Shown: positions 56,753 through 62,824 of the stretch, piece by piece
How positions within the stretch are numbered: the first letter of the stretch is position 1
How the letters are laid out: every line of letters begins with the position of its first letter
Assembly: GCA_024653485.1 (NCBI GenBank)
Contig: JANLFY010000003.1
Span: forward strand, 112,686-176,685
Source: Bacillota bacterium
GTDB taxonomy: Bacteria > Bacillota > SHA-98 > UBA4971
Direction of reading: 5' to 3'
DNA length: 64,000 bases
Program-made: the position numbers and the translations under genes
Notes under the pieces: generated by a model
What the model was told of the DNA's origin: nothing
The model's input: only the letters and a program-made list of their open reading frames with translations
Database searches by the model: none

Positions 56753-57106
56753 CTAGAGTCGGCCTCGTATCCCCGCCGCGTACAGGCGGCCCACGACCTC
56801 GAAGGCCGGCAGAGCAGTCTTGAGGAGTGGGATCCCCTCCTCTTCGGCTCTCCTTACTGCTTGGGGCTGACACTCGACCGCTCCCGCGACGATGATGGCC
56901 GCAAGCCCCACCAACGTCGCCACTGCGACTATGTTCTCGTGGGCTTGAACGGTCACCCAGATGTCACCGTCGCGGGCGTGCGCGATCACGTCGCTTAGCA
57001 GGTCCGACACGTACCCGCACCGTATCTCGGTGTCCAACCCGCCCGCGCCAGCCTCGACAGAGCACTCCAGCAAGTCAAGGACGTCCTGCACTGTCACGTC
57101 TTCCAC
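56753..57106 (-). CDS. DRTGG domain protein
   Basis: 117 aa, CGYVSDLLSDVIAHARDGDIWVTVQAHENIVAVATLVG, typical small DRTGG proteins associated with HydS clusters. Confidence 0.6.
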   Translation of the reverse strand: MEDVTVQDVLDLLECSVEAGAGGLDTEIRCGYVSDLLSDVIAHARDGDIWVTVQAHENIVAVATLVGLAAIIVAGAVECQPQAVRRAEEEGIPLLKTALPAFEVVGRLYAAGIRGRL

Positions 57107-58456
57107 TCACCCTTTGCCCACGTCCGCCTCGCGTTGGGCGCTCATGGCAGACGGGTTCTTCTTCGCGAGGTCGAAGAGTTGCTCCGCAAGTGCCTTCACC
57201 TGGTCTCGAAGCTTGAAGACGCAGTCGGTGTCAACTGCTAGACCCTGCACGATGTCCTCGGCGAGCGCCCTGCAGTGCGGCGATCCACACGACCCACAGT
57301 CGAGACCTGGCAGGTCCTTCACGACCCTCTCCATCATCTCTGCCTTGGAGATCGCCCTGGACACGTCGTGGTCGAGTCGGAACGCAGGAACTGCGGCGAT
57401 GTCCTGGCGCATGTCGAAGTAGCCTTCGTAGGCGCGCCGCGCAAGGTCTTCCTCTTCCTCGGCTGTGAAAGCCTTCACACCCGCGAACTTCTTCGCCAGC
57501 CTTGCCAGATGCACGTGGGCGATGAAAGGATTGCGCACGGCGAGAGCCCCGCCTACGCAGCCACCGATGCACGCCTGAGCCTCAACGAAATCCACGTCGG
57601 TCAGCCTGCCCACCTCGATTTCCTCGAGCACACGGATAACGCTGTGGATGCCGTCGACCACCAAGTAGTTTTCCAGCCCGACAGCGGCGTTCTCCCCACC
57701 GGTCCCTCCCCAGCCGATTCCCGCCCCCGAAGATCTGCGCCTGGGCGGCGGCGCGGTCTGGCTCGCCAACCGGCGTGCTATCTCGCCGTACACGTCAGTC
57801 ATGGAGACCACACCATCTACTGCGTTGAAGCCCCGGTTCGACGCCTCACGCACCCATGTCACCTTCGCCGGGCACGGGGTGATGAAGAACGTCCCGATTT
57901 CTTTCGGTTCGATTCCGAGTTCTCTCGTCTTGCTCTCTTTGGCGAGCTTACCCGCACACGCCATTGGGGAGTCAACGGGAATCAAGTGGTCTATGAGCGA
58001 CGGAAACCTCACCTGTATGAGCCTCACTACGGCGGGACAAGCGGCAGAGATCATCGGTCGAGTCTCTCGGTGCCGCCGAAGGTACTCGCGGGTCACGAAG
58101 GTAGCAACGTCCGCTCCGCGCGCGACTTCGAACACGTCGTCGAAGCCCATGTCGACCAGGGCTGCGAGCACGCGGTCTGGGTCCACGTCCGGCCCGAACT
58201 GCGCATAGAGCGCGGGGGCGGGAAGCGCGATGGTATACCTGAATTCCCGTAGCCGCTCCAGCGAATCCGTGATGGCCGTCTTCGCGTGGTTATCGCAGGT
58301 CCTTATGCACTCCCCGCAATCGATGCACCGCTCCGCGTTGATTCTGGCCTTGCCCTGCCTCACCCTTATGGCTTCGGTAGGGCAGTTCTTTATGCATCGC
58401 GTGCATCCTCGGCATTTCTCTTCGATCAGGAGGACCGAGTGGAACAGGCCGGTCAT
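57107..58456 (-). CDS. Sensory [FeFe]-hydrogenase-like protein (HydS/HfsB-type; H-cluster domain-like with N-terminal 2x[4Fe-4S] and C-terminal Cys4 motif)
   Basis: N-terminal CRGCTRCIKNCP / CIDCGECIRTCD ferredoxin motifs. Hydrogenase large-subunit-like core (FITPCPAKV, QACIGGCVGG). C-terminal CGSCGSPHC. No small-subunit or electron-transfer partner genes of its own. Confidence 0.7.
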   Translation of the reverse strand: MTGLFHSVLLIEEKCRGCTRCIKNCPTEAIRVRQGKARINAERCIDCGECIRTCDNHAKTAITDSLERLREFRYTIALPAPALYAQFGPDVDPDRVLAALVDMGFDDVFEVARGADVATFVTREYLRRHRETRPMISAACPAVVRLIQVRFPSLIDHLIPVDSPMACAGKLAKESKTRELGIEPKEIGTFFITPCPAKVTWVREASNRGFNAVDGVVSMTDVYGEIARRLASQTAPPPRRRSSGAGIGWGGTGGENAAVGLENYLVVDGIHSVIRVLEEIEVGRLTDVDFVEAQACIGGCVGGALAVRNPFIAHVHLARLAKKFAGVKAFTAEEEEDLARRAYEGYFDMRQDIAAVPAFRLDHDVSRAISKAEMMERVVKDLPGLDCGSCGSPHCRALAEDIVQGLAVDTDCVFKLRDQVKALAEQLFDLAKKNPSAMSAQREADVGKG

Positions 58457-58884
58457 GTCAGACTTCCTTTCGAGGGAAGGTTGATGATCATTCTGACGCT
58501 AGTGCCCCGCCCTACAGTGGACTCGATCCGGAATTCGTCGGAGTACCTCTTCATATTGGGCAAGCCCAGTCCGGCTCCGAACCCCATCTCCCGAACGTGC
58601 TCCGGTGCTGTGGAGTATCCCTCCTGCATCGCAAGGTGTATGTCTGGAATACCAGGACCCTCATCGTCCGCCGCGATCTCGATCCGCTCGGGAGAGATCT
58701 CAACGGTGAGGACTCCACGGAACGCGTGGATGACTATGTTCATCTCGGCTTCGTACGCCACGATCGCGGCCCTGCGAGCGGTCTCCGCGTCGACGCCAAC
58801 TTGCCGCAATGTTCGCTTGAGCTTCGCCGCAGCCTCCCCCGCCGCTTGAAAGTCCCCGCCTGCGACCTTGCACTCCATGCGCAT
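58453..58884 (-). CDS. Anti-sigma-factor-like Ser/Thr kinase ATPase (HATPase_c, SpoIIAB/RsbW-like)
   Basis: MRMECKVAGGDF...NIVIHAF...DDEGPGIPD...GFGAGLGLPNMKRYSDEF. Start at the internal M. Confidence 0.6.
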   Translation of the reverse strand: MRMECKVAGGDFQAAGEAAAKLKRTLRQVGVDAETARRAAIVAYEAEMNIVIHAFRGVLTVEISPERIEIAADDEGPGIPDIHLAMQEGYSTAPEHVREMGFGAGLGLPNMKRYSDEFRIESTVGRGTSVRMIINLPSKGSLT

Positions 58885-58888
58885 CGCG

Positions 58889-59422
58889 CTAGCCACCACC
58901 CGCAACGCGCGTCCTGGCGTCCTCGCACCCGGCTCTGGCGGTGGCGCTCGCACCCGCGCCCCCGCCGGCAGCGGGGGCACTCGCTCGAGAGTCCTGGCCG
59001 TCGTGAGAGTCTGCGACTCCCTCTCCACTGCTTTCCGCCCCGACGCCGGGCGTTCCATGGTCTTCAGCTCTCGGCCATGCGCACTTCCCGCGCAGGCCAG
59101 CCTCGAACAGAAGGCCGGCGGATTCGTACAGAGGGTACGACGTGCATAGAATGGGGATGCCGGCCTCCGCCGCCATGGCCACGATCTCTGCCGTGGGCCT
59201 CTTCCCGCGCACAAAGACGATGCCCGAGAGATCCATCATCTCGGCCGCACGTATTATCTGAGACGTGACAAGCCCCGTGAGAACGAGCATCCTTGCCTTC
59301 GTGAAGGCCAGCAGGTCGCTGATGAGGTCACATCCGCACGCACCTTCGATCTCCTCGTCGAGCTTGTCCTCTCCTGTAAGAACCGTAGCATCGAGAACCC
59401 TCATGACATCGCGCAGCCGCAA
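58889..59422 (-). CDS. DRTGG domain protein (second copy) with low-complexity C-terminal tail
   Basis: MRLRDVMRVLDATVLTGEDKLDEEIEGACGCDLISDLLAFTKARMLVLTGL... The G/A/S-rich tail after ~117 aa may not be translated. Confidence 0.55.
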   Translation of the reverse strand: MRLRDVMRVLDATVLTGEDKLDEEIEGACGCDLISDLLAFTKARMLVLTGLVTSQIIRAAEMMDLSGIVFVRGKRPTAEIVAMAAEAGIPILCTSYPLYESAGLLFEAGLRGKCAWPRAEDHGTPGVGAESSGEGVADSHDGQDSRASAPAAGGGAGASATARAGCEDARTRVAGGG

Positions 59423-60086: not shown

Positions 60087-62120
60087 CTACTCCCAGGTGC
60101 GAGCACATTCCTCCCGTGTGCGGCCACACTCTGAATCGCGCGCCCATGGCGGGCGCATGTGCAGCTCGATCGGCACCACCCGCGTGTTGCGAATACCACC
60201 GTCCAACTTCGCGAGAACGTCGGGGGTCGCGCACGCGAACACCACGGGGAGGTTGCGCCTTGCGGCTAGCTCGTGCGCGAGTCGGGTACCCCGCAGCACG
60301 TCGCGCGGGGTGGTCTCGTCCCCCATGTGCGTGTTGCTCACGATCCCGGTGAAAGTCAGCCCGGAGGCCTCCTCAATCGACTCCAGCATGTCTTCGGCAC
60401 CCTCAACGTCCCTTGTGAAAGGCCGGTTGGCATTGACCACGAAGAACATGTCGTAACCCGCCCCCTCGAAGTGGGCGGAGTACCTCGCCAACGCCCTCGC
60501 TCCGACGGGGTCTCCGCCCACATCGAAGACTATTGTCGCGGTCTCGTCGTGGAAAGCCCGAAGAATCGCCGGAGCCAGGGCCGGCAGGTCCGCCGCCTCG
60601 AACCCGGGAGCAGACGATATTACCTCCACGCCCCGGCTTTCCATCTCTCGGGCAGCTTCGCGCGACCTGAAGTAGGGATTCACAATGTCCAAATCGACCA
60701 CGACCACGCGGGCGCCGTCCCGCCGCTTCAAGCTGGCGAAGTTGAGGGAGACTTCCGTCTTGCCCGATCCATAGGCGCCGGTGAAGACCACTATCCTTCG
60801 TGTCATGGGGAGGGTGCCCGCAATTGACAGGAGGTGATTTCTCACCTCGCCCACCAAGTACAGAGACCCGCACACGAGGAGCACACCGTCATGCCCCGCG
60901 CACTTCAGCCCTTCGTCCACTGCTTCCACTGCGTTCTCCCTCACCAGACCCGGGCAACCCGCGCGCAGCGCAAGTGAGACTATGGAGCGCGGATCGACGG
61001 CTCCCAAACGCGATGACGAGGCGGTCGTCGCTATCACCTGCGACGCGAAACCCGCCACCTCGCGCACCATGTCCTCCACCTGTTTGTCCCTGGAGATCCC
61101 GACGACCGCTGTGACCCGCCGCCCTCCAGTTACCTCCGGAACAGCCAGGGCGAGCCTTCTCACACCATCCAGGTTGTGAGCGCCGTCGACCATCACCAGA
61201 GGGCGTCTCTGAAGCACCTCCAGCCGCCCGGGCCACTCGACAAGCTTGAATCCTCGCTTCACGGCCTCCCGAGTCAGATGGACTCCGATACCGCCAAGGA
61301 CCTGCGCGACCCCTACGACGCATGCGGCGTTCTCCACCTGGTGCTGGCCAAGGAGCGGGATCTCGAACTCTCCGAAATCGCGACCGCGTACCCACGCGCG
61401 AAATCTTTGCCCCTCCTCGTTGCAGGAGGTGCGCTCGCAGTGAACGTCTTCGCCCACGACTAGGGCGGGGGCGGCCCTCTCAGCGGCCGCTCGCTTTATC
61501 ACCTCGAGCGCCGGGGGGTGCTGCACCCCGACTACCACGGGCACTCCCCGCTTGATGATGCCCGCTTTCTCGCCGGCGATCTCTTCTATCGTGCCGCCGA
61601 GTCTTTCGCGGTGATCCAAGTCAACGTGAGTGATGACGGACACGAGCGGCGTAATGACGTTCGTGGCGTCCAGCCTGCCGCCCAGACCCACCTCTATCAC
61701 GGCGTAGTCCACGCGCTCTTCCGCAAAATACAGGAATGCCATGACTGTGCCCATTTCGAATTCGGTCGGCGCGCCCAATGACGACTGTGAGGCCATCCTC
61801 TCGAAATGGGGCCGCAGTGTGGTGACGAGTTCCGCCAGGCGCCTCCTCGGCATGGGCCTGCCGTCAACTCGTATGCGCTCGGTGTACGACGATAGGTGGG
61901 GAGACGTGTACAGCCCAACGCGGAACCCCGCGGCGCGAAGCACTGAAGCCGTCATGGCCGCGACCGAACCCTTGCCGTTGGTTCCCGCCACGTGGACGGC
62001 CTTCAGCTTGAGATGGGGCAAGCCTGTGGCATCGAGTAAGGCGAGAGTCCGGTCGAGGCCGAGGCTTACTCCGAACTTCCCCAGGTTGTGCAGGAATGTG
62101 ATGGCCTCTTCGTACTCCAT
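60087..62120 (-). CDS. folC: Folylpolyglutamate synthase/dihydrofolate synthase FolC fused in-frame to a C-terminal ~239-aa P-loop NTPase domain of unknown function
   Basis: N-terminal ~435 aa is a Mur-ligase-type FolC (HVAGTNGKGSVAAM, ...GSLYLVGEVR). It continues without a stop into MTRRIVVFTGAYGSGKTEVSL...VVVVDLDIVNPYF...FDVGGDP...FFVVNANRP. Start chosen at MEYEEAITFLH (62120); the track ORF extends to 62216 and overlaps nth. Confidence 0.7.
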   Translation of the reverse strand: MEYEEAITFLHNLGKFGVSLGLDRTLALLDATGLPHLKLKAVHVAGTNGKGSVAAMTASVLRAAGFRVGLYTSPHLSSYTERIRVDGRPMPRRRLAELVTTLRPHFERMASQSSLGAPTEFEMGTVMAFLYFAEERVDYAVIEVGLGGRLDATNVITPLVSVITHVDLDHRERLGGTIEEIAGEKAGIIKRGVPVVVGVQHPPALEVIKRAAAERAAPALVVGEDVHCERTSCNEEGQRFRAWVRGRDFGEFEIPLLGQHQVENAACVVGVAQVLGGIGVHLTREAVKRGFKLVEWPGRLEVLQRRPLVMVDGAHNLDGVRRLALAVPEVTGGRRVTAVVGISRDKQVEDMVREVAGFASQVIATTASSSRLGAVDPRSIVSLALRAGCPGLVRENAVEAVDEGLKCAGHDGVLLVCGSLYLVGEVRNHLLSIAGTLPMTRRIVVFTGAYGSGKTEVSLNFASLKRRDGARVVVVDLDIVNPYFRSREAAREMESRGVEVISSAPGFEAADLPALAPAILRAFHDETATIVFDVGGDPVGARALARYSAHFEGAGYDMFFVVNANRPFTRDVEGAEDMLESIEEASGLTFTGIVSNTHMGDETTPRDVLRGTRLAHELAARRNLPVVFACATPDVLAKLDGGIRNTRVVPIELHMRPPWARDSECGRTREECARTWE

Positions 62121-62134
62121 TAAGGCTTTCTTCG

Positions 62135-62824
62135 CTATAGCTGAGCGTTTTCCTTCCCCGATCGACATTCGGGAGCGAGCGGGCACCCGTCGCACTTGGG
62201 CCTTTGCGGCCTGCATCGGCGCCGTCCGTGAGAGATCATGTTGACGTGCATGGAGTACACGAGTTCCGGAGGGATCCGTGCCCCCAGGACTTCATGAGCA
62301 GATTCCGCTCCACACCTTGCGTGCACCAACCCGAGGCGCTTCGCCACCCGCAGAACGTGCGTGTCCACGGGGAACACGGGAAGACCGCACCCAAAGAGTA
62401 GAGTGCAGGCACAGGTCTTGGGGCCGACGCCTTCGAAAGACAGGAGGTATTCCCTGGCCGCCTCCACACCGAGTCCCGCGAGGAAGTCTAGGGATAGACG
62501 CCCCCTCTCGCGATGCAGGCGCTCCAGTATCCGTTTTATCCTGGCCGCCTTGACCCGGGCAAGGCCACCTTCCCTTATGGCCTCAGCGACCTCGTCCACA
62601 TCGGCCTTCCTCACGCACTCCCACGAGGGAAACCTTTCCTTCAGCCTTCGAAACGCCCTCTCGGAGTTGACGTCGGACGTATTCTGGGAAAGCACAGTCG
62701 CCAGGAGGGTGTCCAAGGGGTCCTCCCTTCTTGGGCGAGGACCCCCGTACGCCTCCTCTAGAAGCGCCGCGATTCGCCGCACTCGACTGTCGAGGTCGTC
62801 GTGACTTGTGGTGTCCAATCTCAC
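62135..62824 (-). CDS. nth: Endonuclease III family DNA glycosylase (HhH-GPD, [4Fe-4S])
   Basis: LLATVLSQNTSDVNSERAF...GVGPKTCACTLLF...FPVDTHVLRVAKRLGL and C-terminal CRPQRPKCDGCPLAPEC cluster. Confidence 0.8.
   Translation of the reverse strand: MRLDTTSHDDLDSRVRRIAALLEEAYGGPRPRREDPLDTLLATVLSQNTSDVNSERAFRRLKERFPSWECVRKADVDEVAEAIREGGLARVKAARIKRILERLHRERGRLSLDFLAGLGVEAAREYLLSFEGVGPKTCACTLLFGCGLPVFPVDTHVLRVAKRLGLVHARCGAESAHEVLGARIPPELVYSMHVNMISHGRRRCRPQRPKCDGCPLAPECRSGKENAQL

Follow-up and report, generated by a model that had tools for sequence, protein, structure and literature searches.

In-frame fusion of FolC to a SIMIBI-class NTPase domain of a vor-operon-associated family in an uncultured Bacillota lineage

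A single reading frame encodes FolC and a second P-loop domain

The DNA analysed here (hereafter the window) is a stretch of 64,000 nucleotides from a Bacillota bacterium (GTDB lineage SHA-98; UBA4971), i.e. positions 112,686 to 176,685 of contig JANLFY010000003.1 in assembly GCA_024653485.1, and the gene in question, folC~NTPase, lies on its minus strand at 60087..62120, where it encodes a FolC protein continued in frame by a P-loop nucleoside triphosphatase (NTPase) domain. The minus-strand open reading frame (ORF) 60087..62216 is open across 709 codons, with the frame running upstream of the supported start. Its Met33, at 62120, is most likely the true start and gives a protein of 677 aa, because an identical protein (P0121) is called at 677 aa in GCA_029907145.1 (contig JARYMN010000003.1), Met33 is the first residue of all orthologs in an alignment of the fused proteins (alignment A1), and the upstream neighbour, an HhH-GPD (nth-like) gene, terminates at 62135. 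An original prediction, made from the letters of this DNA, had claimed that the folC frame continues past the FolC C-terminus for 239 aa, and both its description and its coordinates proved correct: the first stop codon after ...GSLYLVGEVR is at 60087-60089, and the last 239 residues open with MTRRIVVFTGAYGSGKTE. The gene and its parts are as follows.

60087..62120, minus strand: fused gene folC~NTPase, complete, 677 codons plus the stop codon at 60087-60089
60840..62120, minus strand: FolC module, dihydrofolate synthase / folylpolyglutamate synthase, residues 1-427, ending ...GSLYLVGEVR
61965..61985, minus strand: FolC P-loop GTNGKGS, residues 46-52; columns G46, T47, N48, G49, K50, G51 and S52 are invariant in A1
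60807..60839, minus strand: linker NHLLSIAGTLP, residues 428-438, 11 aa
60135..60806, minus strand: SIMIBI-class P-loop NTPase domain, residues 439-662, about 225 aa, a member of the vor-operon-associated family
60756..60779, minus strand: Walker A GAYGSGKT, domain residues 10-17 (Lys454 in the full protein), followed directly by an invariant Glu
60660..60695, minus strand: switch-I-like motif DLDIVNPYFRSR, domain residues 38-49, at the end of beta2
60498..60524, minus strand: Walker B / switch II DVGGDPVGA, domain residues 95-103, on beta4
60420..60434, minus strand: G4-equivalent motif NANRP, lacking the Asp, domain residues 125-129, after beta5
60327..60335, minus strand: NTH motif, domain residues 158-160, aligned to the 'ENMS' of Mrp without the CxxC that follows there
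60090..60134, minus strand: C-terminal tail, little conserved, variable or absent in orthologs, with a predicted local distance difference test (pLDDT) score below 60

The FolC half is complete by its models and motifs: TIGR01499 (folC) matched residues 54-460 of the 709-aa ORF with 379.1 bits (cut-off 162.65), the Pfam families PF08245 (Mur_ligase_M) and PF02875 (Mur_ligase_C) scored 62.5 and 54.2 bits, respectively, and the catalytic and conserved Mur-ligase motifs, GTNGKGS included, are invariant in A1. FolC adds glutamate to dihydropteroate and folates in an ATP-dependent manner, and this half would be expected to act as it does in other bacteria.

The fusion is conserved across independent assemblies and is under selection

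Searching with the full-length protein yielded, among the matches listed, 22 clusters (P0121-P0142) whose 659-699 aa span the two halves at 100-44% identity and which derive from NCBI, ENA, JGI and Logan assemblies, several lying on 100-290-kb contigs. The gene is an unbroken ORF of 662-682 codons in four GTDB species representatives (L004-L007), and cluster P0133 is recorded in 34 blocks of the contig collection, with 24 of its contigs having been read. Among the best 120 FolC matches the NTPase domain is present only in those 22 clusters; the architecture is rare, in keeping with the expectation that it would be unusual. The linker is conserved in the fused orthologs (consensus HLLSxAGxLP), while at the junction Met the orthologs in A1 have A, K, L, V or I. 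The ratio of nonsynonymous to synonymous substitution rates (dN/dS; Nei-Gojobori, pairs with unsaturated dS) is 0.09-0.15 for the NTPase part versus 0.14 for the FolC part, and each of the 26 fused sequences retains every signature motif of the NTPase family. Neither is the 239-aa extension a chance ORF, since more than 2000 database proteins match it, with E-values down to 2e-59 against stand-alone members. Given the many independent assemblies, the conserved linker, the lost junction Met and the purifying selection on both halves, the fusion is genuine, old and selectively maintained, and the claim that it is no separate gene is thereby borne out.

An artefact, in which folC and a downstream NTPase gene were merged through a missed stop or a frameshift, would draw on the NTPase domain being a common stand-alone gene and on those genomes in which that gene directly follows folC with only a stop between them; yet the same uninterrupted architecture recurs in clusters from many samples and assemblers, long contigs among them, and in the P0133 contigs read, the linker is conserved as protein while the internal Met is not, and the sole split version (P0017) sits on a contig of 1.4x coverage with other broken genes, so that we consider an artefact exceedingly improbable. 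Of the stated worry that the domain might be a common stand-alone gene merely read through here, the first part holds (stand-alone in the best 120 of 2009 matches) and the second does not, the fused form being conserved and selected. Scarcely more probable is that the NTPase is made also, or only, by internal initiation at Met439. It would be in accord with the ATG present at 60806 in the window genome and with a probable translational coupling of the ancestral genes, but the 20 nt preceding this ATG (CAATTGCGGGCACCCTCCCC) contain no Shine-Dalgarno sequence, as the original prediction had said. That is a weak argument alone, because the Shine-Dalgarno sequence of the folC start itself is only weak, and the non-conservation of Met439, which is A, K, L, V or I in orthologs, would be the stronger evidence against an internal start; moreover, the conserved linker is ordered in the structural model. 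We rate just as low the chance that the C-terminal domain is decaying as a non-functional relic of a lost vor operon: the vor genes are indeed gone from the fused locus, but the low dN/dS, the retention of every family-invariant residue in all fused sequences and the confident fold prediction speak against decay.

The closest 'stand-alone' match to the domain, P0017 (169 aa, 57% identity), was considered as an intermediate and rejected, as it is a fused gene broken by errors at 1.4x coverage. On its contig (L089, from ENA, 1.4x coverage) folC~NTPase is split into overlapping calls at 1-1212 and 1203-1712, and a hydrogenase-like gene is split too; these gene splits are sequencing errors, and the P0017 fragment is no true stand-alone homolog.

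The NTPase domain belongs to a distinct SIMIBI-class family

A search with the domain alone matched 2009 proteins, and the best 120 of them, which were looked at, are all stand-alone proteins of 220-300 aa, with at most 49% identity for near-full-length matches. This query omitted the fused proteins, whose domains are identical or 44-82% identical and which only the full-length query listed, so absence from the domain-query list is no evidence of absence. A scan of one genome per species confirmed at least 528 relatives. Aligning 55 family members revealed 24 invariant and 17 near-invariant columns and the signature GxxGSGK[TS]E ... DLDxVNPYFRSR ... ADLP ... DVGGDxxGA ... NxxRP ... NTH ... terminal PW, every motif of which is carried by the window domain. 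The invariant residues comprise G10, G13, S14, G15, K16 and E18 in Walker A, D38, D40, Y45, F46, R47 and R49 in the switch-I-like motif, D95, V96, G97, G98 and G102 in Walker B / switch II, N125 and R128 in NANRP, and N158 in NTH. No Cys is conserved in these 24 invariant or 17 near-invariant columns, and the median is one Cys per domain.

The AlphaFold model of the domain (pLDDT 88.9; predicted template modelling score, pTM, 0.87) begins at beta1 straight after the linker, and the domain combines a Walker A, a Walker B Asp leading into a DxxG-like switch II, and a core of parallel beta-sheet in common with SRP, MinD and BioD proteins, which are the marks of the SIMIBI class. The Walker A claimed by the original prediction is present (GAYGSGKT). 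Its hhhhDLD motif is not the Walker B it was taken for, as 'VVVVDLD' lies at the end of beta2 in the model and corresponds in alignment to the Asp pair of switch I in Mrp/MinD proteins (Mrp 'DADflgP'), the Walker B being IVFDVGGD on beta4. DVGG and VVNANR, likened there to G3 and G4 boxes, do stand at those positions, i.e. in switch II and at the G4-equivalent site after beta5, but the latter (NANR) is without the guanine-specifying Asp. Likewise, of the proposed SIMIBI/G3E-type resemblance the SIMIBI part stands and the G3E part falls, given no hidden Markov model (HMM) match, no NKxD, no metal-binding Cys, and nearest relatives that are Mrp/MinD by sequence and SRP-type by fold. Foldseek returned signal recognition particle (SRP) G domains as top folds, at template modelling scores of 0.5-0.57, while a profile search of PDB sequences gave E-values of only about 0.002, to Mrp, MinD and FleN and confined to the first 40-65 residues; a second HMMER stretch, to 2ph1, covers the NTH region.

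Among Pfam models only PF01656 (CbiA) exceeded its cut-off, with a marginal and partial match (29.7 versus 25.4 bits, positions 1-90 of 125), and nothing in an NCBIfam scan of the domain came near a cut-off, the MinD, ParA and Mrp models all scoring far below. As these profile and motif comparisons indicate, the domain is a member of a distinct SIMIBI-class family that falls outside every named family and has no curated model, in agreement with the earlier failure to assign it. In public records, family members are labelled hypothetical, 'ATP-binding protein', 'cobalamin biosynthesis protein CbiA', 'MinD-like ATPase' or 'HerA-like ATPase', none of which the motif tests support, and neither Pfam nor NCBIfam has a model for the family, of which loci L008-L083 are stand-alone members.

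Stand-alone family members accompany vor operons

We analysed 83 loci by clustering the flanking ORFs and then counting by tblastn, and took as informative the stand-alone members with at least 1.5 kb of downstream sequence (n = 62). In 59 of the 62, a 2x[4Fe-4S] ferredoxin and the alpha and beta subunits of a 2-oxoacid:ferredoxin oxidoreductase (OFOR) are encoded directly downstream on the same strand, accompanied by the gamma subunit in 55. At one further locus (L054) the NTPase gene, uniquely, comes after fdx-vorBAC, with the same genes directly upstream, bringing the vor-adjacent total to 60/62; L001 (Anoxybacter) and L064 have no adjacent OFOR genes, and just downstream in L001 are a sigma-54 activator, a Glu/Leu/Phe/Val dehydrogenase, a butyrate-kinase-family gene and ptb. 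Upstream of the NTPase gene, butyrate kinase was found at 42 of 67 loci and phosphate butyryltransferase at 38 of 67, with a sigma-54 activator being frequent. The OFOR alpha subunit matches VorB of 2-ketoisovalerate:ferredoxin oxidoreductase (VOR) (NF005507, 565 bits versus a cut-off of 399), the kinase matches butyrate kinase (TIGR02707, 592 bits), and the remaining OFOR subunits were confirmed by Pfam. Thus the family is usually the first gene of a ferredoxin-vorB-vorA-vorC operon, often after ptb and buk, and in this vor-linked form it is spread over Clostridia, Zixibacteria, Calditrichota and other groups.

In amino-acid-fermenting anaerobes, branched-chain 2-oxoacids are converted via acyl-CoA and acyl-phosphate to yield ATP, and an order ptb-buk-X-fdx-vorBAC corresponds to the oxidative fermentation of branched-chain amino acids to isobutyrate, isovalerate and 2-methylbutyrate by gut and digester anaerobes. 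The vorABC, ptb and buk genes of C. difficile belong to the oxidative branched-chain 2-oxoacid route of Stickland fermenters (PMC6110889). Literature searches found no description of the NTPase gene, nor of an NTPase partner for OFORs.

Gene order points to a stop-codon loss between neighbouring genes

Every fused gene is found in the order valS-(nth)-folC~NTPase-SPOR, mostly then DRTGG-HATPase-HydS-like, with vor genes absent alongside, and the closest unfused FolCs (50% identity) have the same valS-nth-folC-SPOR-DRTGG-HATPase-HydS synteny without any NTPase. Five genomes, i.e. L003 (Hydrogenispora ethanolica), L013, L030, L032 and L052, have the order folC > NTPase > fdx > vorBAC. To the question raised at the outset, whether relatives carry folC fused or separate, the answer is therefore mixed: fused in the 22 clusters, unfused and without NTPase in the closest synteny, and adjacent to a separate NTPase gene in these five genomes. 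At the folC/NTPase junction the genes overlap in L030 (ATGA) and, by 14-59 nt, in L013 and L003, and are set apart by a 43-nt spacer in L052; in L032 the two genes are in the same frame with TGA-ATC-ATG between them (one in-frame stop plus 3 nt), and reading through this stop would give ...LLNIGD-x-IMEKRITV..., nearly collinear with ...LLSIAGTLPMTRRIVV... of the window. Such junctions indicate that the two genes are probably translationally coupled.

Two related metagenome-assembled genomes (MAGs), L090 and L093, contain NTPase-fdx-vorBAC-SPOR, in L090 followed by DRTGG-HATPase-HydS-like as after the fused gene of the window. All three pairwise adjacencies, namely folC-NTPase, vorC-SPOR and folC-SPOR, are thus found, as would be expected if the ancestral order had been folC-NTPase-fdx-vorBAC-SPOR. 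This suggests, as far as gene order can tell, that the fusion originated by loss of the stop codon between folC and the adjacent NTPase gene, with loss of vor thereafter. In an ancestor within one uncultured Bacillota lineage, the NTPase gene would have lain directly downstream of folC and been translationally coupled to it; the folC stop codon would then have been lost to give a single reading frame, and the following fdx-vor genes would have been deleted or moved, leaving folC~NTPase beside the SPOR gene, while a sister lineage would have lost the entire NTPase-fdx-vor block. The fused genes may also stem from several fusion events, or from an insertion, in place of a single stop loss.

In a neighbour-joining tree, the core fused clade had a bootstrap of 100% and the folC-adjacent clade one of 81%. 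None of the SPOR, DRTGG and HydS genes was found after vor in the folC-adjacent loci within the available flanks. A VorB search aimed at genomes of the fused lineage gave no match on a fused-lineage contig; it revealed the NTPase-vor-SPOR-HydS arrangement through a 'Bacteroidota'-labelled VorB (P0356) that belongs to a MAG other than that of the fused P0125.

A VOR accessory role is favoured over a new role with FolC

By its motifs, the NTPase half has an intact nucleotide-binding site, and the domain is under selection. The domain would bind and hydrolyse nucleotide, probably ATP rather than GTP given the absence of the guanine-specifying Asp, and would probably work by nucleotide-dependent dimerisation, like other SIMIBI proteins. 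The invariant residues outside the P-loop, the arginines R47, R49 and R128 included, seem to point to a specific partner or ligand. The ancestral role of the NTPase was most likely that of an accessory factor of VOR, acting in its assembly, activation or regulation, and most likely it was gene order, and not a folate-specific mechanism, that lay behind the fusion to FolC. Taken as a whole, the reading that we favour, and hold to be somewhat better than an even bet, is that the protein joins FolC to a VOR-linked NTPase through stop loss, with an ancestral VOR accessory role for the NTPase and gene order behind the fusion.

Several observations weigh against this reading. The full order folC-NTPase-fdx-vorBAC-SPOR was on no contig examined; L093 has a gene other than folC upstream of the NTPase, and in L090 the gene at this place is cut off. 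The sister grouping of fused and folC-adjacent NTPases in the neighbour-joining tree had a bootstrap of only ~10%, with P0141 and P0142 unplaced, and so is a hint only; the FolCs of the folC-adjacent genomes are 38-42% identical to that of the window, versus 50% for the syntenic unfused FolCs. No OFOR, ptb or buk gene occurs in the 64-kb window or, within flanks of 10 kb, beside any fused ortholog, and a domain under strong selection without a vor neighbour fits a purely vor-dedicated role poorly unless VOR is encoded elsewhere. Finally, the accessory-factor role is derived from gene neighbourhood and fold class alone.

For the retention of the domain without adjacent vor genes there are two explanations, i.e. 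that VOR is encoded elsewhere or that the domain has a new role with FolC. Under the latter, the NTPase would now work with FolC by co-option, in dimerisation or regulation of (poly)glutamylation or in recruiting FolC to a partner, which we regard as unlikely, if deserving attention. The domain is kept without vor neighbours across a clade diverged to 44% identity, with a dN/dS as low as FolC's, and folC and the family are connected in two ways, by fusion and by adjacency with translational coupling. In addition, an AlphaFold2 model of the full-length protein (677 residues) reached a pLDDT of 88.5 and a pTM of 0.89, with an ordered linker and pLDDT of ~88-92 at the junction, on a shallow alignment of ~15 fused sequences; the model favours some structural integration of the domain with FolC, and would be consistent with a defined packing on FolC and not a floppy tether. 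Set against co-option are the partners of the stand-alone members, which are fdx-vorBAC in 60/62 informative loci with no folate gene nearby, the vor genes that still follow the NTPase in folC-adjacent genomes, the nearest syntenic FolC relatives, which function without the domain, and the derivation of the pTM from an alignment with only ~15 fused sequences. A broader proposal, that the family is an unrecognised, near-obligate VOR partner (a maturation factor, an activator or an extra subunit) that was additionally co-opted in the FolC lineage as a nucleotide-dependent regulatory or dimerisation module, appears more doubtful again; if true, folate glutamylation would be coupled to nucleotide or energy state, unlike in any known FolC.

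The NTPase domain is without an established folate link, and its near-obligate association with vor reframes a 'folate plus NTPase' interpretation, so this 'Rosetta stone' fusion is not to be taken as evidence for a folate function of the NTPase. The fusion is an undescribed FolC architecture, carried in public records as 'Mur ligase family protein' or 'hypothetical protein', and literature searches found no paper on a FolC~NTPase fusion. As an instance of gene fusion it is a clean one, its most likely origin being stop-codon loss between translationally coupled neighbours, while the conserved, unstudied NTPase of the vor operon is a concrete and testable accessory-factor candidate for OFORs.

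Genes around the fused locus

Downstream of the fused gene, a block at window positions 56753-59422 on the minus strand, which continues through L094 13237-21783, begins with DRTGG, HATPase_c_2 (an anti-sigma-like kinase) and HydS-like genes, the HydS-like protein being a sensory [FeFe]-hydrogenase homolog with a C-terminal FeS domain. After HydS-like come DRTGG, PHP, HATPase, RseC, NuoE-like, NuoF-like and HydA-like genes. The whole conserved block, from DRTGG to HydA-like, is syntenic in all relatives examined and has the appearance of a regulatory module placed in front of a hydrogenase of the bifurcating type. At the DRTGG-domain ORF (58889-59422, minus strand; Pfam E 4.9e-9) the public record calls no gene (L094 12611-13236, 626 nt); this is probably a missed gene call, as the orthologous loci L086 and L091 do call that gene.

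Three of the related loci (L090, L091 and L093; GCA_050260415.1, GCA_050260545.1 and GCA_050260175.1) are from MAGs of one study labelled 'Bacteroidota bacterium' or 'Patescibacteria group bacterium', and these labels look unreliable because their FolC fusion, VorB and HydS block are typical of the Bacillota lineage of the window. Alignment A1 also holds another kind of FolC fusion, P0143 (813 aa), with two complete FolC modules in tandem.

Comparison with known systems

The NTPase domain has its overall fold in common with the MinD/ParA/CbiA superfamily (PF01656), but lacks the signature lysine of the deviant Walker A (xKGGxxGK[ST]), and its genes stand in a context that has nothing to do with cell division, partitioning or cobyrinic acid amidation. 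Since all 104 sequences examined have H, A, G or N, and never K, in place of the signature lysine, it is not a deviant Walker A protein of the MinD/ParA type. Mrp/ApbC/Nbp35 and the ATPase-type HypB are MinD-like members of the SIMIBI ATPases and serve in the delivery of Fe-S clusters or Ni; unlike them, the domain has neither the signature lysine nor a conserved Cys or CxxC, PF10609 (ParA/NUBPL) scored 18-21 bits against a cut-off of 27.1, and for want of the CxxC it is not an Mrp-type Fe-S carrier. The SRP-type GTPases Ffh, FtsY and FlhF are 14-24% identical to the domain, which differs from them in having no N-domain and NANR in place of TKxD, and the SRP54 Pfam model PF00448 matched with an E-value of 0.26; having neither TKxD nor NKxD, the domain is neither an SRP-type nor a G3E GTPase. 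Membership of the G3E GTPases (HypB/UreG/MeaB/CobW), whose hallmarks are an NKxD in G4, an ExxG in Walker B and a Cys/His motif for metal binding, was rejected for lack of an HMM match, an NKxD, a metal-binding Cys motif and fold support.

The five-subunit OFORs of Aquificaceae resemble the vor-linked arrangement in concept only, in that an additional protein of ~21-28 kDa is encoded together with the OFOR alpha, beta and gamma subunits and ferredoxin. Identity of the NTPase family with that extra (delta) subunit was rejected, the subunit being CdhB-like (the epsilon subunit in acetyl-CoA synthase/carbon monoxide dehydrogenase) and no P-loop protein (PMC10052474). With canonical FolC, lastly, the fused protein shares the complete N-terminal 427 residues and the usual valS-(nth)-folC position of the gene, but where canonical FolC ends soon after ...GSLYLVGEVR, a second, unrelated nucleotide-binding domain is added here.

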